From NCBI GenBank assembly GCA_029555085.1, contig JAKPTO010000010.1, positions 1 to 15,464 of the forward strand: a stretch of 15,464 bases of DNA, in the 5' to 3' direction. The notes beneath the pieces were generated by a model that was not told the DNA's origin, made no database searches, and was given only the letters and a program-made list of their open reading frames with translations. Source of the DNA: a bacterium (lineage in GTDB: Bacteria > Patescibacteriota > Patescibacteriia > UBA1558 > S5-K13). Position numbers and translations under genes: made by a program. The number at the start of each line of letters is the position of its first letter. Position 1 is the first letter of the stretch. This document shows, piece after piece, positions 445-15,464 of this stretch.

Positions 445-1128
445 ATGGGACTGGATATTATTGTTGGTAAACCAGAAAAATTAAATGGCAGAGATTTGAC
501 CATACTTAAGAATATGATTTATGAGTCATTTTCTAACACCACGCTTAGGTATGTACGAATCGATGAAGATGAAACTGAATTTCTTGAGGTTTTCAAAGAT
601 TTTATAATTGATACCGAAGAAGAAGTATATGACATTAATATGTTGTTGTCTGAAAAGGGGTATACATATGAGGATGTGGATTATCAAGATGATTCGTATT
701 CATATCGAAATGATGATTTCCATTGTGGTGATTTCCGTTTCGTAATGAAAGATGGTAATATTCTTACATTTAATAATGTATCAACAATAAGTATTCCATG
801 TAAAGGTATTCTTTATAATAAAATTGGATCTCAAAGAAAAGGGGCTAATCGCGATTTTTATGCCGATGATATGTGGTCATCAAAAATTGTTGTGAAAAAA
901 GATGTTCTTATCGATCACTGGAATCGTTATTTCTCTGGTGATGGGAATATTGAACAAAAAGGATCAGATCTTCAAGTAACAGAAACAGGAAAAATTATTG
1001 TTAGTGGAGACGTTCCTTATGGTTTTGGTGTAGAATATAATCTCACGGCAGAAGAAAATAGAAAACGATTTAAAGAAAATATTATTGATATTTTTGTTGA
1101 GGGTGAAACATTTGTTGTTTATTGTTAA
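445..1128 (+). CDS. acidic hypothetical phage-type protein (MGLD... start)
   Basis: Long ORF. In-frame ATG at 445 is preferred over TTG at 436. Confidence 0.8.
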   Translation: MGLDIIVGKPEKLNGRDLTILKNMIYESFSNTTLRYVRIDEDETEFLEVFKDFIIDTEEEVYDINMLLSEKGYTYEDVDYQDDSYSYRNDDFHCGDFRFVMKDGNILTFNNVSTISIPCKGILYNKIGSQRKGANRDFYADDMWSSKIVVKKDVLIDHWNRYFSGDGNIEQKGSDLQVTETGKIIVSGDVPYGFGVEYNLTAEENRKRFKENIIDIFVEGETFVVYC

Positions 1129-1139
1129 TATTAAAAAAC

Positions 1140-1289
1140 ATGAAACAAAATAACAATCGTTATGTGATTGATACTCAAATAAGTGTCAAAAAAGAAAAAG
1201 AAGATCATAAAAAGAAAACAAAAGAAGATTTGATATCTGTTATTACAAGTTTAATAAAAAAAATAGAATATCTTGAACAATTAATTTAA
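1140..1289 (+). CDS. small hypothetical protein, 49 aa
   Basis: Manual translation MKQNNNRYVIDTQISVKKEKEDHKKKTKEDLISVITSLIKKIEYLEQLI; fills the gap between neighbours. Confidence 0.55.
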   Translation: MKQNNNRYVIDTQISVKKEKEDHKKKTKEDLISVITSLIKKIEYLEQLI

Positions 1290-1294
1290 AAGAT

Positions 1295-1912
1295 ATGAGT
1301 TACATAAGAAGTGGAAGTAATCCCGAAAAATTGTATATATGGGGCGATAAACAAAATGCTAATATAATAGCATTTAATGAAGAAGGAATCAAAGAAAATT
1401 GGTGTATTCCATTGGATATTTTTAATGGTTTAATAAAAAAATTCCATTGCCACTATCATGATTATCCTTGTAAATATAAAGGAGCACAAGTTGAAGAAGT
1501 GTGGGTTTATGAAGGTGAACTTGAATTTACAGATGAGGTAAATCCTTTACTAGATGCCGAATGTAAAATTAAACTTTCATATAAAGAACATTATGTAATA
1601 ATGTACGAAGTGACATGGAAATGTATTGTTTATTCAAATTTGAAAAGATTTGAAGTCAAATCCCCAGTAATATCAATGCTATCATCCGATCTTCAGAACG
1701 CAATAAATAAAGAGATTCGTGAAGATTTGAGGTATGAGGCTATGACAATTCTTCTATTAACAACAGATGAGAATAGAATGGAATTTCTTAAATATCATAG
1801 AGAGGACAAAGGTAATCTGTGTTGTCTGGTCATTGACAAAGCAAAGGAAGAACTGGTGAAAGAAAAAAAATTAACACAAAACGAAAATGATGGATTCGGA
1901 TGGCGAGGATAA
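1295..1912 (+). CDS. hypothetical protein, 205 aa
   Basis: ORF track; no recognised motif. Confidence 0.8.
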   Translation: MSYIRSGSNPEKLYIWGDKQNANIIAFNEEGIKENWCIPLDIFNGLIKKFHCHYHDYPCKYKGAQVEEVWVYEGELEFTDEVNPLLDAECKIKLSYKEHYVIMYEVTWKCIVYSNLKRFEVKSPVISMLSSDLQNAINKEIREDLRYEAMTILLLTTDENRMEFLKYHREDKGNLCCLVIDKAKEELVKEKKLTQNENDGFGWRG

Positions 1913-1967
1913 CAGATTGTCGTCCACATTATTTTGGCTGGCATTTAACTAAAAAAATAAAAAACAA

Positions 1968-2171
1968 ATGGAAATAAACGGATACGTATTAGTTTCAACC
2001 GATAAAAAAGGTGAAAAAAGATTTTTATCGGGTAATAGATGGGTGAAAGATTATTTAAAATTAAAATTTTCTGATATTACCCTATTACCAAGAGTAATTG
2101 ATATTAAAAAATGGCCAAACATTGGACCAACATATTTTAATGCACAAATAAAAATTGACATATGTATTTAA
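1968..2171 (+). CDS. hypothetical protein, 67 aa
   Basis: ORF track; strong A-rich leader. Confidence 0.65.
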   Translation: MEINGYVLVSTDKKGEKRFLSGNRWVKDYLKLKFSDITLLPRVIDIKKWPNIGPTYFNAQIKIDICI

Positions 2172-2392
2172 ATAAAACAGAAAAAATGAACATGAATTTA
2201 AATGAAACAAAATTTAGAATTGGGGATCTAGTATATAAACCAAAAGGTTATAAATTCCCCGGAATTGTTGTGTCTGTATTTAAGAACACCAATGGTGAAA
2301 CTCGAATTGTTGCAGAATTGGAAAATAATGGAATGCTTCATATCTTTACTGAAGCACAGCTTGAACGTAGACCAAATAAAGAAAAAAAATAA
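2162..2392 (+). CDS. small SH3-like beta-barrel protein resembling DfrB/R67 dihydrofolate reductase (start may be 2186 or 2192)
   Basis: FRIGDLVYKPKGYKFPGIVVSVF...VAELENNGMLHIFTEAQLER aligns by eye with R67 [23 protein letters not shown]...[21 protein letters not shown] (recalled sequence). Confidence 0.6.
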   Translation: MYLNKTEKMNMNLNETKFRIGDLVYKPKGYKFPGIVVSVFKNTNGETRIVAELENNGMLHIFTEAQLERRPNKEKK

Positions 2393-2393
2393 A

Positions 2394-2612
2394 ATGGAAG
2401 AAAAAGAAACACTGGATGAATTTCATTATCATGAAGCACTCGATAGATCGTATCTTATTGCTGAAATGATAGAAACCATACTTTTAACACATCCTGTCAT
2501 TCAAAAACATAGAGACTTAAAGAAGAGAGTTGCCAATGCTCAGCAGTTGATCTATAATGTGTATCAATTAATTGGTGGGTTGGAACTGGCACTTTTTCCT
2601 CCTAAAGAATAA
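2394..2612 (+). CDS. hypothetical helical protein, 72 aa (MEEKETLDEFHYHEALDR...)
   Basis: In-frame ATG at 2394, just after the upstream stop. The ORF-track start at 2265 overlaps the previous gene. Confidence 0.7.
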   Translation: MEEKETLDEFHYHEALDRSYLIAEMIETILLTHPVIQKHRDLKKRVANAQQLIYNVYQLIGGLELALFPPKE

Positions 2613-2654
2613 ATAGTTTTCTCATCTTTTTTCAAGAAAAAACGATTAAAAAAA

Positions 2655-2686
2655 TTTGGATTTCTCGTTTTTTTTACATATTTTTA
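2655..2686 (+). promoter_or_regulatory. putative Bacteroidota sigma-A promoter (variant -7 box)
   Basis: TTTG 2655-2658, 20-nt spacer, TATTTTTA 2679-2686 (one mismatch to TAnnTTTG); intergenic. Confidence 0.5.
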
Positions 2687-2696
2687 CCGTGTAGAG

Positions 2697-2858
2697 ATGT
2701 TTTCGAAAATCATTAACAATTTTGAAAATTATTTTCAATTACTTGGTTTTGATATGTCTGGAATCTACAAAAAAATATATATCAATTCTGAAATACAATA
2801 TCATCTCAATGAAATTGAAAAATGTGAAGATGAACTTAAAAATATTGGTAAAAAATGA
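2697..2858 (+). CDS. small hypothetical protein, 53 aa
   Basis: Manual translation MFSKIINNFENYFQLLGFDMSGIYKK...ELKNIGKK. The stop overlaps the next ATG (ATGA). Confidence 0.5.
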   Translation: MFSKIINNFENYFQLLGFDMSGIYKKIYINSEIQYHLNEIEKCEDELKNIGKK

Positions 2859-3244
2859 TAAAAGAACAAATGCCCGAAAATATTGGTGAATTAAAAAAAC
2901 TCATTGAAAGATATGAGACAATCACTCTCAAAGAAATAGAAAATGTGTGGACGGAAATGTCTCATTATTATGATCCAATGAAACCGGCGTATCTTGTTTC
3001 ACGAAAATTGACTGGATTTGGTACCACAATAACTTGTAATGTATGCCAAGCAGTTATGGATGATAAGGACGAGCCACATTGTGGGAAATGTGTATGTGGT
3101 AAACAATTAAAAGATTGTCTTTTATATCCATACAATAAAACCTATAAAAAAATAATTCAAGCTAAAACACCAGAAAAATTGTTGGTCGCTTATAGAAAAC
3201 GTGGGGAACATTTGAAAAAATATTTTAAAGATTTTATAAAATGA
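2855..3244 (+). CDS. Cys-rich putative metal-binding protein, paralogue of 3455-3817
   Basis: TGFG-x-CxxC...CxxC...C motif; shares NIxELKxLIExYETIxL and AKTxxxLxxAxRKRxxHL with 3455-3817. Confidence 0.8.
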   Translation: MIKEQMPENIGELKKLIERYETITLKEIENVWTEMSHYYDPMKPAYLVSRKLTGFGTTITCNVCQAVMDDKDEPHCGKCVCGKQLKDCLLYPYNKTYKKIIQAKTPEKLLVAYRKRGEHLKKYFKDFIK

Positions 3245-3450
3245 AACTGAAAAAAACAACAAGGAACGGTAGATTCGGTAAAGAAATTTTTATTAGTGAT
3301 TCTAAAGATAATGGTTATACCGCATATTTCTTTGACTTTCCGTTTATTGTCACCCAAGGACAAACAATTAAAGATGCCCAAGACAAACTTTGGTATGCAG
3401 CATATGATATTTTTAGTGATTTAATACAAAAGTCCAAAACTAAAATATAA
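3241..3450 (+). CDS. hicB: HicB-like antitoxin domain protein (no DNA-binding tail)
   Basis: DNGYTAYFFDFPFIVTQGQTIKDAQDKLWYA resembles the HicB/UPF0150 pattern GY.A..PDLP..TQG.T..EA..N..EA. Confidence 0.6.
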   Translation: MKLKKTTRNGRFGKEIFISDSKDNGYTAYFFDFPFIVTQGQTIKDAQDKLWYAAYDIFSDLIQKSKTKI

Positions 3451-3454
3451 AAAA

Positions 3455-3817
3455 ATGGCAACAGCAAAAAATATTGATGAACTTAAAAGTCTCATTGAAA
3501 CATATGAAACAATTAGTTTGGAAGATATAAAAAAAGTGTGGTCTTCTATTTTTAACAAGAAAAACAAAAAATCAGATTATCCGGGAAGAGATGTGGCAAA
3601 AAATATAACGGGGTTTGGAACTTTTTCATGTATTTTATGTGTAAAAGTAAAAAAACAGTGTCACTATTGTGTTTATGGGGAGTATATTGGGTGTATACTT
3701 TTTTCTCATAAAGAGACATATAAAAACATATCAGAGGCAAAAACATCAAAACAGTTATATAATGCATTTCGTAAAAGAGCTAAACATTTAAGAGAGTATT
3801 TTAACGACATACTATAA
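3455..3817 (+). CDS. Cys-rich putative metal-binding protein, paralogue of 2855-3244
   Basis: TGFGTFSCILC...CHYC...C; aligns along its length with 2855-3244. Confidence 0.8.
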   Translation: MATAKNIDELKSLIETYETISLEDIKKVWSSIFNKKNKKSDYPGRDVAKNITGFGTFSCILCVKVKKQCHYCVYGEYIGCILFSHKETYKNISEAKTSKQLYNAFRKRAKHLREYFNDIL

Positions 3818-3818
3818 A

Positions 3819-4352
3819 ATGAAATTTGGAAGTATTGAAATAATTGATAATAATGGCTGGAATTTAAATGAAGTGATTCCAGAATGGGATTGGAAAGTAG
3901 AAGAATCAAATTTAAAAATACCCCCCGAATTTGGCGTTGGTATTAAAACCCGTTACAATGGTGAGGATTTTACATTTAAACATGTTTTTAATGAAACACC
4001 GGTTGTGAAACTTATTGTTACAACTTGGCGGGGCATTTCAACTAATGCTATCCATTATTATGGTTCACTTCAAATCACTTTTCCTGAAATGGAAAAAGAT
4101 AACCAACCCGGCCATATTGTTAATCTTTATGGTGTAAGTGAAATTCCCATGTTCTCAAATAATAAAATAACATTAACTCGTGTATTAGAACAAAGTGAAA
4201 TTGATGATGATCCTATAAGACATGAGTATTTTGATGCTGGTGATAATGTTAGTTCATTTTATACACCGGCAAGTGTAATAAAGAGAGGGAAAGAAATGTT
4301 TGAAAATATATTTGGCAAGGGCTGGGTCTTGAAAATTGATGAACTTCATTGA
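3819..4352 (+). CDS. hypothetical protein, 177 aa
   Basis: ORF track; starts 1 nt after the previous stop. Confidence 0.8.
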   Translation: MKFGSIEIIDNNGWNLNEVIPEWDWKVEESNLKIPPEFGVGIKTRYNGEDFTFKHVFNETPVVKLIVTTWRGISTNAIHYYGSLQITFPEMEKDNQPGHIVNLYGVSEIPMFSNNKITLTRVLEQSEIDDDPIRHEYFDAGDNVSSFYTPASVIKRGKEMFENIFGKGWVLKIDELH

Positions 4353-4366
4353 TTTTTTATTAAAAA

Positions 4367-4654
4367 ATGAAAATAACAGATATAAGTAAAATTGACCCGG
4401 AATATCGTGTTCTTAACATCGGCAAATACAATGGATATGTTTATATTTGTCCATATTGTCATCCAGAACGCGTGGAGTTCCACATAAGGGATATTATTGG
4501 ATTTGGTACTGATAATCAAGGATATGTGGTTGTTGTTAATGAATGTCCAAAATGTTTTGAAAGATCATATCATCATTTATATGATTTTGACACTTATGAT
4601 ATATTTTTAATGATGCAAGACAAACAAGCAAAATTTCTAAATGAAAAAAATTGA
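4367..4654 (+). CDS. zinc-ribbon-like protein
   Basis: CPYC and CPKC pairs followed by SYHH. Confidence 0.75.
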   Translation: MKITDISKIDPEYRVLNIGKYNGYVYICPYCHPERVEFHIRDIIGFGTDNQGYVVVVNECPKCFERSYHHLYDFDTYDIFLMMQDKQAKFLNEKN

Positions 4655-4805
4655 AACACTTGGTACGATTTTGTTGTTGTTTGGTATTTCATGCTTTGTT
4701 ATGGATATTGAATTATTTGGAATTGCTTGGTCAATTTTAAGCCTTTTTGGATCGGTTTGTTGTATATCCGGAATTGTGATTTTAATAAAAACAACATTAA
4801 AATAA
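4641..4805 (+). CDS. small two-TM membrane protein, 54 aa
   Basis: Manual translation MKKIETLGTILLLFGISCFVMDIELFGIAWSILSLFGSVCCISGIVILIKTTLK. Confidence 0.6.
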   Translation: MKKIETLGTILLLFGISCFVMDIELFGIAWSILSLFGSVCCISGIVILIKTTLK

Positions 4806-4811
4806 AAAAAT

Positions 4812-4982
4812 ATGAAAAAACAAAAAATTAAAATGAAACCTAATCCTGATGATGTGAAAAAAGTCGTGGATAATGTCATTAAAAACATGCGCGGCAAACA
4901 TTGCCGTTTTGAGGGTGAATGTGATTTGGCCGGAAATCTCAAAAATACGAGGTTCTGTGCCCCATGCAGTTATTATAAATAA
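4812..4982 (+). CDS. small Cys-containing protein, 56 aa
   Basis: Manual translation ...GKHCRFEGECDLAGNLKNTRFCAPCSYYK. Confidence 0.55.
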   Translation: MKKQKIKMKPNPDDVKKVVDNVIKNMRGKHCRFEGECDLAGNLKNTRFCAPCSYYK

Positions 4983-5002
4983 TTATTAAAAATTTTAAAA
5001 TT

Positions 5003-5376
5003 ATGACTGGTTTATTTTTAATCTTATTTTTTTCACTAGGAATCGTTTTGGTTTATTATTTTATAAATTAGATTCTAGATCGTGTGCTGCTTTTTCAACA
5101 TTGGCTTTTATTATCTTTGGTTTATACCTGGTGGCAATTCCAATCAGTAGAATTACAACTAAAACAAAAGTAGAATATTTCAAACAACTACAAATAACAA
5201 TCGATCATAATCGAGAAGTTAATAATGATCTCTCAGTATTGGAAAGAATTGAAATCATAAATGAAATTAATGAATCTAATTGGGTAATCTCCAAATGGAA
5301 AATGACTGGCCAGAAATGGTATAACAACAAATGGTATTTTCATCCATCAACACAAACAGCTGAATACATAAAATAA
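5003..5376 (+). pseudogene. membrane-anchored protein gene apparently split by a 1-nt frameshift
   Basis: The ATG 5003 frame (MTGLFLILFFSLGIV..) stops at TAG 5069-5071. The other frame (..FGLLFYKLDSRSCAAFSTLAFIIFG..) is open to 5376 with no upstream ATG. Adding one T in the 5046-5049 run fuses them. Confidence 0.5.
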
Positions 5377-6321: not shown

Positions 6322-7077
6322 GTGAAAAAACACCAACATATAAAAAACTTTTTCAAATTTATTAATGATAATGATGAACGAAAAATACCAATACAAATTA
6401 AATTGGATTTATTTCCTGAATATCTAGATGATGAAGAAAAAGACTATATTTTAACATCAGAAAAAATTTCATTTGAAAAACGAGCACGATATATAAATTA
6501 TATTAATAAAACAAATAGATGGGATTTTATTGCACCTTTTGGTTCTTTTTCACCAACAACCACCCTTGCCATTAGTAAAAACAATAACGTTTATTTTATT
6601 AATTTATCCGGTGAGCAAGATGTTACCGGAATTGATAAATATAAGTTATTTCATACCGAATATTATTACCCAGCAATCCTACGTGGAGGAGAAGCGAGAG
6701 CCGCTTATTTTAATGCCTTATTTGAAAAAAATATATTTAAATATATTTTCAAAATGGATGGTTTTTTCGGACCAAATGTGGCCGTGGCAATATTATATAA
6801 TCCGAATGGATATAACAAAAACAATTATGGCGGACGAATTTTAATTAATCATAATGGAATAGCTGATGTTTCACAAGTTGATCTTTATGATATATTAAAA
6901 CGTAACGCTTCAGAAAAAGACCTTGCAGCTTATTTTAACACATTAATCGGGCGTGATGATATATGGTATGTTTACAAAAAAAAGCATACAGACGAAATTG
7001 GTGATTATTTCGATGCTACTACAATATATAACGAGAATATTCGTATTTATATGTCAGGAGAAGTTATTTATGTATGA
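6322..7077 (+). CDS. WG-repeat-like beta-repeat protein, paralogue 1
   Basis: GTG start; N-terminal QHIKNFFKF; repeats DFIAPF..LA..YFINLSGEQDVTGID and ILINHNGIADVSQVD; AxYxN motifs. Confidence 0.75.
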   Translation: MKKHQHIKNFFKFINDNDERKIPIQIKLDLFPEYLDDEEKDYILTSEKISFEKRARYINYINKTNRWDFIAPFGSFSPTTTLAISKNNNVYFINLSGEQDVTGIDKYKLFHTEYYYPAILRGGEARAAYFNALFEKNIFKYIFKMDGFFGPNVAVAILYNPNGYNKNNYGGRILINHNGIADVSQVDLYDILKRNASEKDLAAYFNTLIGRDDIWYVYKKKHTDEIGDYFDATTIYNENIRIYMSGEVIYV

Positions 7078-7688
7078 ATTTAAAAAACCAACATATAAAA
7101 AACTTTTTTAGGTTTCTTGAAAAAAAAGAAAATAGAAAAACAAAATTTGTTATTAAATATCGCATTATGCCCGAAGACATATCTGAAAAAGAAATGGATG
7201 TTTTTAAACATCATATTTCACCGGAAAAAAGGGCGGGATTATTCAATGGTATATTTAAAAAAATTTGGTATAGTTATGTTTTACCTTTTGATATTGTAGC
7301 ACCATCTTTAGCTTTAGCCACACAACTGGATAAATTTTTACTTATAAATCAATATGGTGAACCGAATGTGACCGGAATTGATTTAAAAAAACTTAGACAA
7401 AATGTTATTAATGATGAAATTCCTATTGGATATTTAGAGGGTTATTTAAATTCAGTACAGGAAAGATTTTTGTATTATAATTTGGATCGTAAATCTTTAT
7501 CCTTTCTTCCGGAAAATTTATTTCTTATAACAGTAAGTTTATCATTAAATCTAATGATAATTGTTAATGAGAACGGAATGCCGACTACAAGTGGTGTTAC
7601 CAAAAAAATAAAAAAACAAATAGAAGATATTCAGCCTGACGCATATGAAAATACAATAAATGTTATGATACGTTTTAAAATGATTTAA
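7074..7688 (+). CDS. WG-repeat-like beta-repeat protein, paralogue 2
   Basis: N-terminal QHIKNFFRF; VLPF..ALA..LLINQYGEPNVTGID; IVNENG. Confidence 0.75.
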   Translation: MNLKNQHIKNFFRFLEKKENRKTKFVIKYRIMPEDISEKEMDVFKHHISPEKRAGLFNGIFKKIWYSYVLPFDIVAPSLALATQLDKFLLINQYGEPNVTGIDLKKLRQNVINDEIPIGYLEGYLNSVQERFLYYNLDRKSLSFLPENLFLITVSLSLNLMIIVNENGMPTTSGVTKKIKKQIEDIQPDAYENTINVMIRFKMI

Positions 7689-7755
7689 AATTAAAAATTG
7701 AAAACTAATAATCAACATATAAAAAACTTTTTTAGGTTTCTTGAAAAAAAAGAAA
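7089..7755 (+). repeat. 43-bp exact direct repeat at the 5' ends of paralogues 2 and 3 (7089-7131, 7713-7755); first 20 bp also at 6334-6353
   Basis: CAACATATAAAAAACTTTTTTAGGTTTCTTGAAAAAAAAGAAA read directly at both positions. Confidence 0.9.
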
Positions 7756-8444
7756 GTAGAAATATACCAGATATTACAATATTCATGTTATTTCCTGAAA
7801 TGATTAATGATGATATTTGGAATTGTTTATTTTATAGTGATAAAGATACGTGTATAGATTTAAGAACAAGATACATTAATAAAATAAGTGGTTTGTTTTT
7901 TGATATGATTTTACCATTTAATGTGATTTCAAAACATCACGCATTGGCGTATGATTATGATGAAATGGAATTTTATACCGGTTATATTATAAATAAAAAG
8001 GGTGAAGTAAGTGTCAAAGGATTAGATATCAATAAATTTTATGGTGGTTATATTCCAAATTTACAATATATCGTCGCAGCATATGTAAATACATTGAACT
8101 GGACAAGATATGACTATATTAAGTATGGTGTTGCGACATTAATCCCAAAAAATATTTTACCCCATCACGCTAGTGCGATTCCTAAAGGCGAGGATGAATT
8201 TTATTCAGTTATTGTTGATTTAAAAACGGGATTAAAAGAAACATCATCTTTTGATTTAAAAACTATAGAAAAACTAGTCGATGCCGGATATGGTGCGGCG
8301 TATTTTAATGGTATAGTCGTCGGAAATCTTTATTCCGGAATTAGTTTTTATGACGATACCAAAAAAACACTAGTCGGAAAATCACTTGACGGTAAAAAAG
8401 TATTGATTGATACTGAAGGAAATCTTATTAAAATATTAAATTAA
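7698..8444 (+). CDS. WG-repeat-like beta-repeat protein, paralogue 3
   Basis: TTG start; QHIKNFFRF; ILPF..ALA..IINKKGEVSVKGLD; LIDTEGN. Confidence 0.75.
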   Translation: MKTNNQHIKNFFRFLEKKESRNIPDITIFMLFPEMINDDIWNCLFYSDKDTCIDLRTRYINKISGLFFDMILPFNVISKHHALAYDYDEMEFYTGYIINKKGEVSVKGLDINKFYGGYIPNLQYIVAAYVNTLNWTRYDYIKYGVATLIPKNILPHHASAIPKGEDEFYSVIVDLKTGLKETSSFDLKTIEKLVDAGYGAAYFNGIVVGNLYSGISFYDDTKKTLVGKSLDGKKVLIDTEGNLIKILN

Positions 8445-8513: not shown

Positions 8514-8858
8514 ATGGAAGTAAAACTTAACAAATTAATTGATAGTCTTATACATACCACAAAACTTGGCCAGTGTAAATGGGAACGTGATTCATGCGGC
8601 GATTATAATTTAACACTCAAACACGTCGTAATATCTTTAAAATACACACCAAAACAAGGTTTAGTCAACAATGTTATATCTTTAGTCTTACGTGATCGTC
8701 TTAACATTGATATAAAATATGCCAGTATTGTAAAAGAAGACGATGATAATAAAAACAATCTCAGTAAATTATATACACTTGTGGTTGCAGACTATAACAA
8801 TTTCATAGAAGATGTTATTCAAGAAACATTAAATGAAATTGGATTTATTGAGTCGTGA
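8514..8858 (+). CDS. hypothetical protein, paralogue of 8880-9242
   Basis: KLIDSLIHTTKLGQCKW and NLSKLYTLV..IEDVIQETLNEI. Confidence 0.75.
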   Translation: MEVKLNKLIDSLIHTTKLGQCKWERDSCGDYNLTLKHVVISLKYTPKQGLVNNVISLVLRDRLNIDIKYASIVKEDDDNKNNLSKLYTLVVADYNNFIEDVIQETLNEIGFIES

Positions 8859-9486: not shown

Positions 9487-9490
9487 AATC

Positions 9491-10198
9491 ATGAGAAAAA
9501 TTTTTGTTACTTATGAATTGGCGGAAAAATTAAAAGTTATTGGTTTTAACGAATCATGCATTTTCAGTTATGACAAAGATAAACAACCGAGACATAATCT
9601 ATTTTATTCCGAGGGTTTATTATCACTTGATTGGTCTAAAGATAGCCCAAATTTATTAGCCCCATTATGGGAACAAGTTGCTACTTGGCTCAGAAATGAA
9701 TATCAAATCACAGTGATTGTTGGATTTTCATTAAAATTAAAAAAATGGGACGCACATTCAAGTGACTTAAAATTATATGGTATTGAATATATCAAACAAT
9801 ATATGTGGAAGGAATTATATGACCAGCCAAAATTCGACACATATGAAGAAGCCCTAGAATACGGAATTACAGAATGTATAAATAAAATCTGGAAAAAATA
9901 TACATATATACCCGATCCAACTAGTAACACATCCGATATAACCAAGTCAAAAATGTTTGAATTTATTAAAAAATCAACACCAGATCTTGTCTCTGTTATA
10001 GATATGAAACTAATTGGTTTTGGTGAAAGTAGTGAGGAAATAAATAGTCATTATCTGGTTAAATGTATTGTCGATGGTATCGATTTTACAAATCCATTCG
10101 AAAATCGTGACTTACAGTCAATCGAAAGAACTTGCCGGGTCGATGCTTTAACATTTCAAAACTGGTTAAAAAACGAATTAACAATTAAATGGATTTAA
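9491..10198 (+). CDS. hypothetical phage protein (FVTYELAEKLK..GF / APLWEQVATWLR / TYEEALE family) with C-terminal extension
   Basis: Motif pattern recalled from Bacteroidota phage hypothetical proteins; function unknown. Confidence 0.8.
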   Translation: MRKIFVTYELAEKLKVIGFNESCIFSYDKDKQPRHNLFYSEGLLSLDWSKDSPNLLAPLWEQVATWLRNEYQITVIVGFSLKLKKWDAHSSDLKLYGIEYIKQYMWKELYDQPKFDTYEEALEYGITECINKIWKKYTYIPDPTSNTSDITKSKMFEFIKKSTPDLVSVIDMKLIGFGESSEEINSHYLVKCIVDGIDFTNPFENRDLQSIERTCRVDALTFQNWLKNELTIKWI

Positions 10199-12208: not shown

Positions 12209-13636
12209 ATGAGCATACCTCTTACTCGTAAAATCAAATTATCGGTATACGTTCCAAATACCATTACAGAAGAAAAAGAAAGACACGAATACAAAACATT
12301 TGTGTGGCAACTTTTGAGAAAGGTAAATCAACAAAACTATGAATTTCATAACCTATTGGTAAAGAAACTTATTGAACTTGATTCCGTTCTCGAAGGACGG
12401 CTTACCGAAGACGATAATTTCATCGAAATTCGCAACCGTTATTACTCAGATAGAAAAGATAAAAAAAATCAACGGGAGTTTTTTGATTATATCAGAATGA
12501 AAAAAGATGAATTGATTAAAGAATTTGGTGGAAAAAATCTACATGGGTACATTTATACCTATTTGAAAAATTATATTAAATCCCTTCCAGAAGAACAACA
12601 ATTCATGGCATCATATACTTATGGATCCATTTCAAAAAATGTTGTCGACAAATACACTAACGATCAGTTCGATGTGTTTAGAGGTGTAAAAACTATTGCT
12701 ACGTATAAAAATACACAACCGATACCAATTAACATTATAGGACATGTCAAAAAAAATGAAAAAGGTGAGTTATATAAAAACACCGGAAAAGAATGGTTTA
12801 ACAAATATGATGACATTTATACATTCAAATTTAAATCAATTAAAAAACACGAAATTGAATTACAACTTAATTTTGGAAAAGACAGATCAAATAATCGAAT
12901 AATTGTCGATAGAATTTATAATAACGATCCAAATTATAAAATTTGTGATTCAAAAATCCAAGTCGTTGGAACAGAAATTTTTCTGTTACTAGTGTTTAAA
13001 CAATTTGTAACAAAACGAGAATTAGGTCTTGATGTTAGAAAAGTAATTGGAGTTGATTTGGGTGTAAAAAATGTGGCTACAATAGCAACAAATTTCTCTG
13101 ATCACATAGAAATAATTGGCGAAGGTGAGTTTGTTTTGATGAGAACTAAATTACAAATTGAAAAACAAAAAAGATCTATACAAAGAAATTCAAAGTATTC
13201 TAGAGGTGGACATGGAAGAAATAGAAAATTACAGAAATTAAACGAATACAGAAATTATGAACGTAATTTTCGTTCAACATTTAATCATAAAATATCGAAA
13301 GATGTTATTGAAATTGCAATAAAACATGGGGCTGGACAAATTAATATTGAAGATCTATCTTCTATTCCATTAAAAGAAAAAAATAACAGAATACTTAGAT
13401 TTTGGTCATATTATGACTTAATACAAAAAATTATATATAAAGCTAAACGAGAAGGTATAATTGTTAATTTGATTAATCCCAGTTATACCTCACAAAAATG
13501 CCATCAATGTGGTCAAATCGGAAACAGGCCAAAACAAGACACATTTTTATGTACCAATCCCACATGTAAAGCATTCAATGAACCAATTAATGCCGATGTT
13601 AATGCCGCCAAAAATATTGCTAAAATATCACTATAA
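12209..13636 (+). CDS. cas12f: Cas12f/TnpB-family RNA-guided RuvC endonuclease (type V-F-like), catalytic triad intact, 475 aa
   Basis: RuvC-I VIGVDLG (D283), RuvC-II INIEDL (E381), Zn ribbon C431/C434/C448/C453, RuvC-III NADVNAAKNIA (D463). RGGHGR, NHKIS, WSYYDL-QKIIYKA and YTSQKC closely follow AsCas12f1 as I recall it. A tracr/repeat region lies downstream. Confidence 0.85.
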   Translation: MSIPLTRKIKLSVYVPNTITEEKERHEYKTFVWQLLRKVNQQNYEFHNLLVKKLIELDSVLEGRLTEDDNFIEIRNRYYSDRKDKKNQREFFDYIRMKKDELIKEFGGKNLHGYIYTYLKNYIKSLPEEQQFMASYTYGSISKNVVDKYTNDQFDVFRGVKTIATYKNTQPIPINIIGHVKKNEKGELYKNTGKEWFNKYDDIYTFKFKSIKKHEIELQLNFGKDRSNNRIIVDRIYNNDPNYKICDSKIQVVGTEIFLLLVFKQFVTKRELGLDVRKVIGVDLGVKNVATIATNFSDHIEIIGEGEFVLMRTKLQIEKQKRSIQRNSKYSRGGHGRNRKLQKLNEYRNYERNFRSTFNHKISKDVIEIAIKHGAGQINIEDLSSIPLKEKNNRILRFWSYYDLIQKIIYKAKREGIIVNLINPSYTSQKCHQCGQIGNRPKQDTFLCTNPTCKAFNEPINADVNAAKNIAKISL

Positions 13637-13639
13637 AAA

Positions 13640-13671
13640 TTTGGTTTTTATGATATTTTTTCTTATATTTG
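13640..13671 (+). promoter_or_regulatory. Bacteroidota sigma-A promoter driving the guide-RNA region
   Basis: TTTG 13640-13643, 20-nt spacer, TATATTTG 13664-13671; directly after the nuclease stop and followed by non-coding DNA. Confidence 0.75.
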
Positions 13672-13677
13672 TACAAA

Positions 13678-13816
13678 AGTTCTTTGATATATTGGAAATT
13701 ACCTTTTTAATAGGTAATTGGGGCGGTTGTGCGTCCATAAAGTTGAGGGAGTGTCCTAAGAAATTAAAATCGAACAAAGACACATATAACCACTCACTAA
13801 GTACCCTTTTTTTATT
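13678..13816 (+). ncRNA. putative tracrRNA/scaffold for the Cas12f-like nuclease
   Basis: Hairpin AATTACCT/AGGTAATT (13697-13719). Hairpin GGGCG/CGTCC with loop GTTGTG (13726-13731) complementary to the repeat end CACAAC. Stem TGAG-GG-GTGTC/GACAC-CC-CTCA (13744-13796). Anti-repeat TACCCTTTTTTTATT (13802-13816). Confidence 0.7.
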
Positions 13817-13866
13817 TAAAAATTTTCGAACAACAGCCACAAAATCACGTGTTTATTCATCGGTAT

Positions 13867-13922
13867 GTTGGGGATGATAACAAAAATCTGGGTATACACA
13901 ACAACACATTGGTTCATCCACG
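13867..13922 (+). CRISPR. single 36-nt CRISPR-type repeat (13867-13902) plus candidate ~20-nt guide (13903-13922)
   Basis: GTTGGGGATGATAACAAAAATCTGGGTATACACAAC has GTTG...CAAC termini and pairs with two tracr segments. It is followed by AACACATTGGTTCATCCACG and a short T-run. Only one full copy exists, so it is not a conventional array. Confidence 0.6.
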
Positions 13923-13968
13923 TATTTTTAAATAATAATGAATTGTATCATAATAAAATTGACAAAAA

Positions 13969-14115
13969 ATGAAAGTATATCAATTATCTAAAATCAATGG
14001 CTATTATTGGTGGACAGGGACATCAATACTAACCACAATACCAGAAGAAAATTATGAATATAAATGGACTTCTGATTTTAAATTTGTTGAACAATTAAAT
14101 GGAAAGAAAATATGA
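13969..14115 (+). CDS. small hypothetical protein, 48 aa
   Basis: Manual translation MKVYQLSKINGYYWWTGTSILTTIPEENYEYKWTSDFKFVEQLNGKKI; ATGA overlap with the next gene. Confidence 0.55.
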   Translation: MKVYQLSKINGYYWWTGTSILTTIPEENYEYKWTSDFKFVEQLNGKKI

Positions 14116-14318
14116 AAGTATATGTAGTTTATCAAGAAAATGGATTTGGTGGTTCAGAAGTTGCTGAAATATTTTCATCACGGAATATAGCAAGAGAATA
14201 TGTTATTGATGAAATATTTGGCAAAAATCAAGCGTATAAAAACAAGACAGAAAACGTATTAAATAATTGTGCCGACCAGTTTATTCACGAACACGATGTT
14301 CTTTTTAATTGGCGGTAA
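14112..14318 (+). CDS. hypothetical protein, 68 aa
   Basis: ORF track. Its TAA stop lies in the TAAC of the adjacent attC-like site. Confidence 0.7.
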   Translation: MKVYVVYQENGFGGSEVAEIFSSRNIAREYVIDEIFGKNQAYKNKTENVLNNCADQFIHEHDVLFNWR

Positions 14319-14410
14319 CGATCCGGTGCTATGAGAAGGCCGGGAATTTGAAATACTTACTTGTCAACGAAGCGCAAACACCCGGCTTTTTTATAGCACG
14401 TGTTAACGCC
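14311..14410 (+). repeat. attC-like hairpin site 1
   Basis: TAAC 14316-14319 ... 19-bp arms 14326-14344 / 14381-14399 (G:T wobbles) ... GTTAACG 14402-14408. Confidence 0.75.
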
Positions 14411-14448
14411 TGTTTTTCATTGCCTTTCTTATTTAGAATCAAAACAAA

Positions 14449-14515
14449 TTACAACGATTGTTGTAAAATAGTTGTCAAAACATTTGGAAGTAATACAACA
14501 AATGTTGTATCTTTG
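14449..14515 (+). promoter_or_regulatory. promoter with two palindromic operators TACAAC-N4-GTTGTA
   Basis: TTTG 14483-14486, 21-nt spacer, TATCTTTG 14508-14515. Operators at 14450-14465 and 14494-14509; the second overlaps the spacer and -7 box. Confidence 0.75.
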
Positions 14516-14545
14516 GTGTATACAAAAACACTAAAAATAAACAAA

Positions 14546-14932
14546 ATGAAAGCACTTCAAATTATCAACAAATCAAGCGTAGAAGTAGAAAAAATGTATT
14601 GGACACCAAATCAGTATGATGTGACAATTAAAAACTCAAACGGAGTTCATGTTTTTGGTGTTAAATTAACATCAGAAGGAACATTTGAACTTTTTAACTA
14701 TCAGTTTAGCGAAGCAAATCAATTGTTAGTTGATAGTATTAAACCATTTATTTTATTTGAAATAGTTGACGTTGAATCATGCAATGAAATGCAGATTGCA
14801 TTCCCTACAGAAAAATTAAACAATGTAAAATCATTGGAAGATATGATTTTTGATTCTAAATCAGAATGGGTTAATGCAGGTTGCCCAGTTAGTACTTTTG
14901 CTGAAGAACAATATAGCGATAGAAATTATTAA
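14546..14932 (+). CDS. hypothetical protein, 128 aa (MKALQIINK...)
   Basis: In-frame ATG at 14546 after the promoter and an A-rich leader. The ORF-track extension to 14309 runs through the hairpin and promoter. Confidence 0.75.
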   Translation: MKALQIINKSSVEVEKMYWTPNQYDVTIKNSNGVHVFGVKLTSEGTFELFNYQFSEANQLLVDSIKPFILFEIVDVESCNEMQIAFPTEKLNNVKSLEDMIFDSKSEWVNAGCPVSTFAEEQYSDRNY

Positions 14933-14934
14933 TC

Positions 14935-15300
14935 ATGAAAAAACAAAATTACCATGAAGCTGAATTGGGCAAAGTGCCTGATTCAGTTAAAAACATCGAG
15001 TTTAAAGGAACTGTTATTGATGCTTCGGACTGCAAAGAAAAAAAGATTGCTGATATTTTATCAGGTAAGCATGATAATGACTTTATCGACAAAGAGAAAT
15101 TCCAAAGAAACTCTTATTATTTAGCGTATCACAAGGCTACTGAAATGCTCAACTGGGCAGAATTAAGTAGAACGCTTGCCGGTGATCGCTCGTCGATAAC
15201 AAAAGAGCGCATTCCTCAAAAGCATATTCAAAAAATTGACGAATTACGAAAATTAATGTCAGCGTGGATTTTAGAAAATGATCCGCAATTCAATCGCTAA
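14935..15300 (+). CDS. putative HTH-like DNA-binding protein, 121 aa
   Basis: C-terminal LNWAELSRTLAGDRSSIT looks like a helix-turn-helix; starts 2 nt after the upstream stop. Confidence 0.65.
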   Translation: MKKQNYHEAELGKVPDSVKNIEFKGTVIDASDCKEKKIADILSGKHDNDFIDKEKFQRNSYYLAYHKATEMLNWAELSRTLAGDRSSITKERIPQKHIQKIDELRKLMSAWILENDPQFNR

Positions 15301-15312
15301 CGCTGCGCCCTT

Positions 15313-15452
15313 AAAATAGGCGTTAACGTTTTGCGTGTATAAGAAGTGGTGGAATTTGAAACCGAAACTTTCAACAAACGCAGAACTTAATTAGAATTAA
15401 AAAACTTTAAATTAACCGAGAAATCCGCCATTTTTTATACACGCTGTTAGTG
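15313..15452 (+). repeat. attC-like hairpin site 2
   Basis: TAAC 15324-15327 ... 21-bp arms 15333-15353 / 15424-15444 (3 G:T pairs) ... GTTAGTG 15446-15452. The loop begins GGAATTTGAAA as in site 1. Confidence 0.75.
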
Positions 15453-15464
15453 GCTGGGCTTTCT

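Follow-up and report, generated by a model that had tools for sequence, protein, structure and literature searches.

A probable mobile cassette array bounded by attC-like hairpins in a phage-like contig

The locus and its two hairpin sites

The window analysed here is the entire contig JAKPTO010000010.1 (15,464 bp), which is contig C4 in a genome bin of 53 contigs and 1.02 Mb. At its right end, two long hairpins that resemble the attC recombination sites of integrons bound a pair of small genes. The original prediction, made from the sequence alone, read them as the borders of an integron-like cassette in a probable phage. Comparison with related contigs now suggests that mobile cassettes likely form a short array over 13903-15464 of this phage-like contig, for which the recombinase would be supplied in trans. 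The elements that form the array are as follows.

13903-14318, + strand: 3' part of cassette 0; its hairpin and first ~154 nt are absent, and its left flank TTAATTGGCGG ends in the TAA of TAAC
14316-14405, + strand: hairpin site 1, attC-like (TAACG 14316-14320, arms 14326-14344 and 14381-14399, TGTTA 14401-14405)
14319-15326, + strand: cassette 1, the mobile unit, 1008 bp (hairpin 1, ACGCCTGTTTT, a promoter-like stretch, two open reading frames (ORFs), AAAATAGGCGT and TAA)
14406-14419, + strand: right flank of site 1, the 5' end of the cassette-1 body, which pairs with 15310-15323
15324-15449, + strand: hairpin site 2, attC-like, first element of cassette 2 (arms 15333-15353 and 15424-15444, TGTTA 15445-15449)
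15450-15464, + strand: GTGGCTGGGCTTTCT, the right flank of site 2, with which the cassette-2 body starts, ended by the contig end and continued in the related contig L004

The two TAAC...GTTA hairpins were borne out as homologous, forming a 47-nt direct repeat of 70% identity in a repeat search. Site 1 consists of TAACG, ATCCG, a 19-bp stem with three G:T wobbles, a 36-nt loop, the return arm, G and TGTTA. Site 2 has a 21-bp stem, a 70-nt loop and four unpaired bases after TAACG (five in site 1). The 4-nt asymmetry noted between core and arm is real, with TAACG-N4-stem on the 5' side and stem-TGTTA on the 3' side, and it is conserved in 30 members of the site family described below. The stop codon of the upstream gene also sits where it had been placed, the ORF at 14112-14318 ending with the TAA of TAAC. 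A BLAST search of site 1 against its own genome returned only the self match.

Both RNA and DNA folding favour the + strand as the folding strand, as had been proposed. Folded as RNA, this strand gave -41.9 kcal/mol for site 1 (z -5.29) and -39.0 for site 2 (z -3.72), values equalled by 0 of 200 shuffles, and the minus strand gave -33.3 (z -3.41) and -24.3 (z -0.73). The corresponding DNA values, + versus minus, were -14.4 versus -11.7 for site 1 and -15.8 versus -13.0 for site 2. The + strand folds better because the G:T pairs become C.A mismatches on the minus strand.

A site family of constant shape

A search with the pattern TATRAGAAGNNNNGGAATTTGAAA returned 7 IMG/VR contigs, 23 metagenome stretches and 8 genome contigs. 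Hairpin context was present in 18 of the 23 metagenome matches; it was missing from 5 of the 23 metagenome and 5 of the 8 genome matches, which were set aside. Two genome contigs were used: one of 1.1 kb from a Salinivirgaceae metagenome-assembled genome (MAG), and one of 133 kb from a Saprospiraceae MAG, of which the first 8 kb served. Following a simple scanner, a covariance model (R1) was built from 30 distinct sites. R1 and the scanner recover many further sites that differ in sequence and are constant in shape.

Across the 30 sites, TAACG and TGTTA are invariant, 19 of 20 stem pairs vary on both sides, and 93.9% of pairing cells are occupied by pairs against 69.5% in shuffles. As 0 of 500 shuffles attained any of the observed measures, the hairpin structure is more than chance. 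Two G:U pairs are fixed, in 30/30 and 28/30 sites. The family consensus, over ~90-125 nt, runs from YAAC-G and N4 through a 20-bp stem in which G:T wobbles are fixed, a loop that varies and the return arm to T-GTTR. From the folding and the covariation, the sites are thus single-strand imperfect palindromes bounded by AAC...GTT, as attC sites are. The window sites score 63.5 bits (site 1, E 2e-9) and 118.1 bits (site 2, E 3e-20) with R1. The sites also obey a one-strand rule, lying 53 versus 0 on the two strands in 25 phage-like loci and 49 versus 0 in 22 host-like loci.

Two search routes were abandoned. A scanner based on ViennaRNA gave 27 and 28 matches on the two strands of G008:C5 (the 133-kb Saprospiraceae MAG contig), mostly spurious, and a fuzzy search for GGAATTTGAAA in the genome gave 127 matches, essentially all due to chance.

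Several observations touch on the form and range of the family. In several cores (L024 rc 2403-2530, with rc denoting the reverse complement; L032 3433; L021 4234), the cassette ORF has its start in the loop of the hairpin and runs on across the 3' arm and GTTA. A unit TAAC|TATGTTATATG(T/A)ACAC...ACATATAAAACC..GGATAGAAAATAAAAACAC is conserved after three different cassettes (L004 rc 9262, L024 rc 4370, L032 1967); it has a short hairpin and no long stem, and may be an array end or a minimal site. By eye, the TAACG...stem...TGTTG architecture is also seen at ~3750-3880 of L043, a contig of a Spirosoma MAG, from which the family probably extends to Cytophagales. G008:C5 (L048-L054) contains a few sites, in two separate places, and lacks a tyrosine recombinase; its first ~12 kb recur at its end, offset by ~121 kb, and it looks like a complete phage genome of ~121 kb.

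Cassette boundaries lie 5' of the hairpins

Two related contigs, L004 and L007, share window 13903-15464 at 99.9% identity and bear no relation to it before 13903. Contigs that are near-identical over parts of the array locate the cassette junctions: precisely across TAACG, in either direction, 60/60 identity gives way to 13-29/60. For example, L032 matches the window at 15/60 positions upstream of TAAC 14316 and at 60/60 downstream of TAACG, and at 15324 L024, L027 and L032 match at 60/60 upstream and 24-29/60 downstream. Three different cores come after the end of cassette 1, ...CCCTTAAAATAGGCGT|TAACG; the window has the same one as L004 and L037, a second is found in L024, L027 and L038, and L032 has the third. 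L018 and L032 have upstream sequence in common, which runs into the site-2 core in the former and the site-1 core in the latter.

Seven cores were seen at least twice, with 2, 2, 2, 6, 1, 1 and 2 kinds of upstream flank and always a single kind downstream. Eight identical copies of site 1 in other contigs have two kinds of upstream and one kind of downstream flank; seven identical copies of site 2 have six and one. Each junction lies 5' of the hairpin, so the hairpin belongs to the genes downstream of it. Among the near-identical contigs compared, the cassettes are combinatorially shuffled.

These junctions put the mobile unit at 14319-15326, whose 1008 bp equal the 1008-nt spacing of sites 1 and 2, and replace the cassette first proposed (14403-15446, a 1044-bp circle). 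The postulated G/TT crossover fails on the hairpin strand, where the junction is in TAACG, and stands as G|TT on the opposite one. In host arrays, where the outer bases can be TAAC or CAAC and GTTA or GTTG, the fourth base of GTTR at a site agrees with the initial base of the following YAAC in 23 of 23 pairs, six of them being G..C. This concordance places the exchange inside YAA|C. As at integron crossovers, the cassette start complements its own inverse core. The integron-like reading of the locus thus holds in that recombination sites bound mobile cassettes, with other boundaries than those proposed and with only part of the claim to be a distinct system.

Metagenomes give a similar picture. 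The stretch 13903-15464 was found, in contig form, in 20 runs from 14 studies of sludge, digester, biofilm and soil. Four runs were compared, over the parts of the window with contig cover. After 15328 (TAACG), contigs switch to another core in all four, and in one run three distinct continuations arise between 15328 and 15334. One run departs at 14320, and one enters at 15324 from other upstream sequence. Breaks also occur at 14392 and 14421, neither of which is at a site.

Cassette ends are complementary

The swapped complementarity of the flanks, which had been proposed for sites 1 and 2, proved to be a true cassette signature. The right flank of site 1 and the left flank of site 2 match at 14 of 15 positions, and a repeat search found the same 15-nt inverted match at 14402-14416 and 15313-15327 (93%, GTTA/TAAC included). 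Between the two flanks of site 1 itself, the figure is only 10 of 15. Unique right flanks have a complementary partner downstream (at most 2 edits, plus TAAC, within 2.5 kb) in 22 of 27 phage and 29 of 40 host cases, against 1/27 and 1/40 for upstream controls. Complementarity scores of adjacent pairs average 3.84, with 4 of 19 scoring at least 8. The means are 1.32 for a site's own flanks (0/40 scoring at least 8) and 1.05 for pairs from other contigs (2/930). The idea that swapped ends are a mere by-product of a longer stem was ruled out by the 14/15 versus 10/15 matches and by own-flank scores at background.

The array was expected to continue beyond the window edge, and in L004 it does so. 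There, cassette 2 holds a 59-aa ORF and is closed by AGCCTTGCCACTAAC, followed by third and fourth hairpins. The predicted third site thus exists: AGCCTTGCCACTAAC, ~200 nt after site 2, agrees at 13 of 15 positions with the predicted complement of GTTAGTGGCTGGGCT. Every left flank in L004 complements the preceding right flank, two of them with a 1-nt indel. L004 also has a complete version of cassette 0. It begins with a hairpin, site 0 (rc 6514-6636), and the flank to the right of this hairpin, GTTACCGCCAGTTAT, agrees at 13 of 15 positions with the reverse complement of the left flank of site 1.

Some regularities of the flanks stand apart from this pairing test. Right flanks (e.g. L004 rc 8676-8690, G005 rc 9487-9500) have a motif such as CTGGTG(C/G)CGG in common, left flanks have ..TAGC..CTTGC.. 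in common, and a T.T mismatch beside a G.T wobble is retained at the same position in the flank pairing of different cassettes.

Cassette genes and their orientation

The array carries the following genes and signals.

13969-14115, + strand: cassette-0 ORF of 48 aa
14112-14318, + strand: cassette-0 ORF of 68 aa, with weak PHROG/DUF7336 matches only
14508-14515, + strand: candidate Bacteroidota-type -7 element TATCTTTG (TAnnTTTG), read from the sequence, ahead of the ORF at 14546
14546-14932, + strand: cassette-1 ORF of 128 aa, with a PHROG match at E 0.009 only and none in Pfam; found in 8 records
14935-15300, + strand: cassette-1 ORF of 121 aa, matching phrog_34662 (function unknown) at E 1.5e-8; found in 8 records

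TAnnTTTG is what we take to be the Bacteroidota -7 promoter consensus, and a stretch resembling TATCTTTG, AAATGTTGTATATTTG, heads the G002 locus. In the relatives, DNA methyltransferases are the commonest ORF cluster (15 records) and a PAPS-reductase-domain protein recurs in 4 records. This methyltransferase-dominated cargo suggests accessory or anti-restriction genes.

Phage and host arrays differ in gene orientation. The longest inter-site ORF lies on the hairpin strand in 21 of 22 phage-like segments and opposite to it in 22 of 23 host-like segments. For instance, the host array of G012:C27 has five sites with one gene per interval on the opposite strand, which is the canonical integron geometry. 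Host arrays therefore follow the integron plan, in which an attC comes after its gene and folding occurs on the strand opposite to the coding one, and the window and other phage-like loci do not. In phage arrays the hairpin heads the cassette, and the gene is inverted relative to the host and integron geometry. Hairpin polarity tracks the junction, not transcription.

The orientation also bears on whether the hairpins are RNA elements or regulatory repeats. In the window they lie on the sense strand between genes, the 3' arms of sites 1 and 2 contain a T-run, and a promoter-like motif follows site 1. Site 4 of L004, by contrast, keeps its stem through compensatory changes and has no T-run, and host arrays carry the hairpin antisense to genes, as counted above. 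Given this flip of orientation between phage and host and the T-run-free site, a terminator or RNA element is not the primary explanation.

Phage character of the contig

The proposal that this DNA is phage-like was upheld. The contig looks phage-like from membership in IMG/VR, the gene content of L004 and G005, and its own ORFs. The upstream part of L004 encodes DnaB, an SNF2-type helicase and an HNH nuclease, and the complete 31.8-kb G005 encodes a terminase, a YqaJ exonuclease and NinG. A tRNA scan of the window found none, and a blastn search of 14300-15464 against 50,697 phage records gave no match.

The phage appears to be out of place in its bin. R1 finds two sites in the window's own genome, both within the window, and matches only 1 of 40 relatives of the bin, over only 48 nt. 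It finds 18 sites in the Saprospiraceae MAG and 56 in the Salinivirgaceae MAG (many of them ~50 nt from contig ends), and at E <= 1e-5 matches 82 of 121 sampled genomes of the order Bacteroidales (the order of G009, and of the Salinivirgaceae MAG, in NCBI taxonomy). The contrast between Bacteroidales and bin relatives is why the contig looks like a Bacteroidota-type phage fragment that is foreign to the Patescibacteria bin, or at least atypical there.

Outside the array, the window carries the following transposon-related features.

12209-13636, + strand: TnpB gene, 475 aa (Pfam Cas12f1-like_TNB 1.9e-17, OrfB_IS605 2.6e-9)
12209-13902, + strand: TnpB gene with a structured 3' region; homology to L004 begins at 13903

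Among the 20 largest window ORFs, TnpB alone scores above a family cut-off. A 39-nt contig over 13864-13902 reaches a depth of 160 against ~15-23 for its neighbours (~10-fold higher in two of the metagenome runs). Metagenome contigs depart from the window sequence at 13903. These data suggest that 13902 is the right end of a multi-copy TnpB element that removed the head of cassette 0. L033 has window 13692-14683 and lacks the TnpB ORF. The hairpin sites themselves are not IS200/IS605 ends, which would come as distinct left and right hairpins with TnpA; each unit has a single hairpin type, and the TnpB region ends at 13902, outside both sites. The Y1 transposase family PF01797 was absent from the four viral records searched and was found in G000 only on contig C6.

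Elsewhere in the window, three adjacent paralogous ORFs (251, 204 and 248 aa) at 6322-8444 have no family match. They resemble four ORFs downstream of the L024 array at 28-38% identity, from which the two phages are related beyond their cassettes.

Recombinases linked to the arrays

No integrase had been seen in the window, and none was found in cis: a whole-genome search for the tyrosine recombinase family PF00589 matches contig C5 only and nothing on the window contig. As the window and 45 related loci carry no recombinase, the array is like a group of clustered attC sites that have no integron-integrase (CALIN), a status that for two sites 919 nt apart on a recombinase-free contig hinges on the sites being attC. 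The tyrosine recombinase that was to be looked for in phage or host did not turn up in the window and its relatives, and did so in other phages and in host arrays.

In hosts, tyrosine recombinases of 357-381 aa sit at array edges (L078, L079, L080). Their best models are XerA/integron-integrase and integron-integrase, at 201-214 bits against an IntI cut-off of 265. In phages, a 266-aa Xer/IntI-like recombinase follows a phage-type array in G032:C48, and relatives of it occur in 80 IMG/VR loci. R1 at E <= 1e-3 places 224 of 224 matches upstream of this recombinase type and on the same strand, in 52 of the 80 loci. An independent scanner, covering 320 kb upstream and 426 kb downstream of the recombinase genes, found 242 sites, every one upstream of the gene and on its strand, in 64 of the 80 loci, with 0 in any other position. 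This strong linkage points to the 266-aa family as the enzyme that would serve these sites. A phage recombinase common to G005 and G008:C5 was also sought, and only methyltransferases were found in common.

Related recombinases occur beside IS91 elements. In G008:C1 (L060, 472001-478000), positions 1037-3317 hold an IS91-family transposase (NF033538, E 3e-128) preceded by an IntI/Xer-like recombinase gene. Such IS91-linked recombinases measure 256-323 aa, and an R1-type hairpin with the ends CCACG...TGTTGAAC lies before the gene. In G124:C1 (L071, e.g. 2779-5021), ~12 recombinase and transposase units occur in a site-rich region of 174 kb.

Proposed mechanism and alternative explanations

In the proposed mechanism, the + strand, when exposed as single-stranded DNA, would fold into the hairpin. 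An Xer/IntI-like tyrosine recombinase would exchange one strand at AA|C between two sites, which would excise or insert a circle, and replication would resolve the product, as at integron attC sites. As the sequences show, a cassette opens with its hairpin and closes with a flank that complements the right flank behind it; the joint of the 1008-bp circle would read ...AAAATAGGCGTTAA|CGATCCGG... The recombinase could come in trans from a co-infecting phage, as many related phages have one at the array end, or from a Bacteroidota host whose chromosome has the same site family beside such recombinases. On sequence comparison, the array appears to be the phage counterpart of a CALIN. A published parallel speaks for this reading: a CALIN with two methyltransferase genes has been reported in the virulent Polaribacter phage P12002L (Qi et al. 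2023, PMC9892861), in which R1 has four matches at E < 1e-3, three of them around a methyltransferase gene at 38.0-39.2 kb; these may be the attC sites of that study.

Several points weigh against this reading. The evidence is all comparative, with no recombination event or circle observed. A search for PF00589 was negative in 7 viral records, the complete G005 among them, and in the ~121-kb G008:C5, and tblastn with two array recombinases found no match in the window and 45 related loci. In two runs (X15, X20), other upstream sequence joins the cassette-1 body at 14421, 16 nt past GTTA. Of the right flanks, 5 of 27 in phages and 11 of 40 in hosts had no partner at 2 edits or fewer, and among the 19 adjacent pairs given by the first scanner, 10 had scores no higher than 4. 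Sites overlooked by that scanner sit at many downstream partner positions, and they probably explain many of the low-scoring pairs.

The enzymes raise further difficulties. The linked recombinases score 126-221 bits overall, under the IntI cut-off of 265, and align to VchIntIA (2a3v) in two blocks that skip residues ~208-246, the IntI-specific insertion. This insertion defines IntI, and recombination of attC sites is said to depend on it (Ghaly et al., bioRxiv 10.1101/2022.02.06.479319). An IS91-family HUH transposase also lies beside related host recombinases, so a second enzyme besides the tyrosine recombinase could be involved.

The last point leads to the first of three rival explanations, rolling-circle HUH/IS91 transposition. 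Here TAAC would be the nick or target, the hairpin the ori or ter, and the cassettes non-autonomous passengers added one by one. HUH enzymes act on single strands near hairpins, at fixed tetranucleotides, and the paired recombinase and transposase genes of G008:C1 and G124:C1 would fit. However, Pfam finds no HUH or transposase match other than TnpB in the 20 largest window ORFs. The 80 phage loci tie arrays to a tyrosine recombinase alone, although IS91 transposases were not searched there. Complementary cassette ends and the AAC/GTT box fit the attC logic of tyrosine recombinases, and the IS91-linked hairpins have different ends. We give this explanation a slim chance.

Second, the hairpins might be genuine attC sites served by a canonical host IntI, the array being an ordinary CALIN from a classical integron. 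The boxes AAC...GTT, the strand that folds, the position of the crossover and the geometry in hosts are all canonical, and Bacteroidota are among the phyla listed with integrons (PMC8618304). IntI1 recombined one attC site of P12002L (Qi et al. 2023, PMC9892861). Against a canonical IntI, the array-edge recombinases lack its insertion, and the IntI model TIGR02249 exceeds its cut-off in 0 of 5 array-bearing Bacteroidales genomes. IntegronFinder 2.0 is reported to have found a single complete integron in Bacteroidetes proper, in Salinibacter (PMC9024848), to be set against the 82 of 121 genomes with R1 matches. The chance of this explanation is slimmer still.

The least probable rival combines the RNA or regulatory elements discussed above with shuffling by homologous recombination, as in T4-type promoter-stem-loop cassettes; G005 does encode YqaJ exonuclease and NinG, but the junctions join dissimilar cores with only TAACG in common (L018 versus L032), too short for homologous exchange, and an Rfam search of the window at E <= 10 gave 6 matches, all below gathering thresholds (best 25.6 against 83 bits), so that neither a fixed orientation nor a curated family match marks the hairpins as terminators or structured RNAs.

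The tyrosine-recombinase cassette array thus remains the preferred reading. The claim of a distinct system stands in part: the recombinases lack the IntI insertion and the phage genes are inverted in orientation, while the site logic and polarity are integron-like and host arrays are canonical. A wider proposal is that these sites and the insertion-less Xer/IntI-like recombinases form a second, unrecognised integron lineage, frequent in Bacteroidota chromosomes and present with its recombinase in many of their phages, that phages run their own anti-restriction and accessory cassette platforms, and that the IS91 recombinases belong to the same machinery. We regard this proposal as evenly poised between right and wrong.

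Comparison with known systems

In a search of the non-subscription literature, neither this site family nor arrays next to insertion-less recombinases proved to have been described. On the current view integrons depend on the IntI-specific domain, and they are reported to be rare in Bacteroidota and phages; this family combines integron logic with domain-less recombinases. If these recombinases act on the hairpins, the definition and range of integron-type systems would widen, the swapping of methyltransferase and other accessory genes among phages would be explained, and the IS91-associated tyrosine recombinases would gain a testable function. Taken alone, the window is a decayed, recombinase-less example of this widespread Bacteroidota and phage system, with inverted gene orientation.

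Integrons and CALINs are the closest comparison. Here as there, imperfect palindromes end in AAC...GTT, one strand folds, and the crossover is at G|TT, equivalent to AA|C. Cassette ends are complementary, content is variable, methyltransferases occur as cargo, and, as in CALINs, no integrase lies beside this array. Among 10,705 phage genomes, 17 CALINs have been counted (Qi et al. 2023, PMC9892861). Unlike those systems, the sites here show much greater uniformity (TAACG-N4, a 20-bp stem, G:T wobbles that are fixed), strand choice seems to rest on wobble pairs, phage genes lie on the hairpin strand with the hairpin leading the cassette, and the associated recombinase has no IntI-specific insertion. 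With no recombinase carrying the IntI-specific domain beside the arrays, the system is integron-like in function and is not classed as an integron.

Tyrosine recombinases of IS91 and IS3 elements have been grouped near IntI, without its insertion (Smyshlyaev et al., bioRxiv 10.1101/542381). The recombinases linked to our arrays resemble this 'integron-like' subgroup, as they score best against integron-integrase/XerA, lack the insertion and, for some of the array type, are encoded directly upstream of an IS91-family transposase. The difference is that the cited work, in its available parts, classifies proteins and attributes neither arrays nor hairpin sites to them (bioRxiv 10.1101/542381).

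Two further systems offer partial parallels. CTX phage integration likewise has an Xer-type recombinase on a single-strand hairpin, one exchange and resolution by replication, since Xer integrates the folded single-stranded phage DNA. Here, in contrast, many sites form cassette arrays in phage and host, rather than one attachment site with dif. The promoter-stem-loop (PeSL) cassettes of T4-type phages are similar in carrying small accessory genes in a hyperplastic region, with conserved stem-loops and shuffling among relatives. PeSL exchange is regarded as homologous recombination; in the arrays described here, by contrast, the junction is a fixed 5-nt box and the cassette ends are self-complementary.

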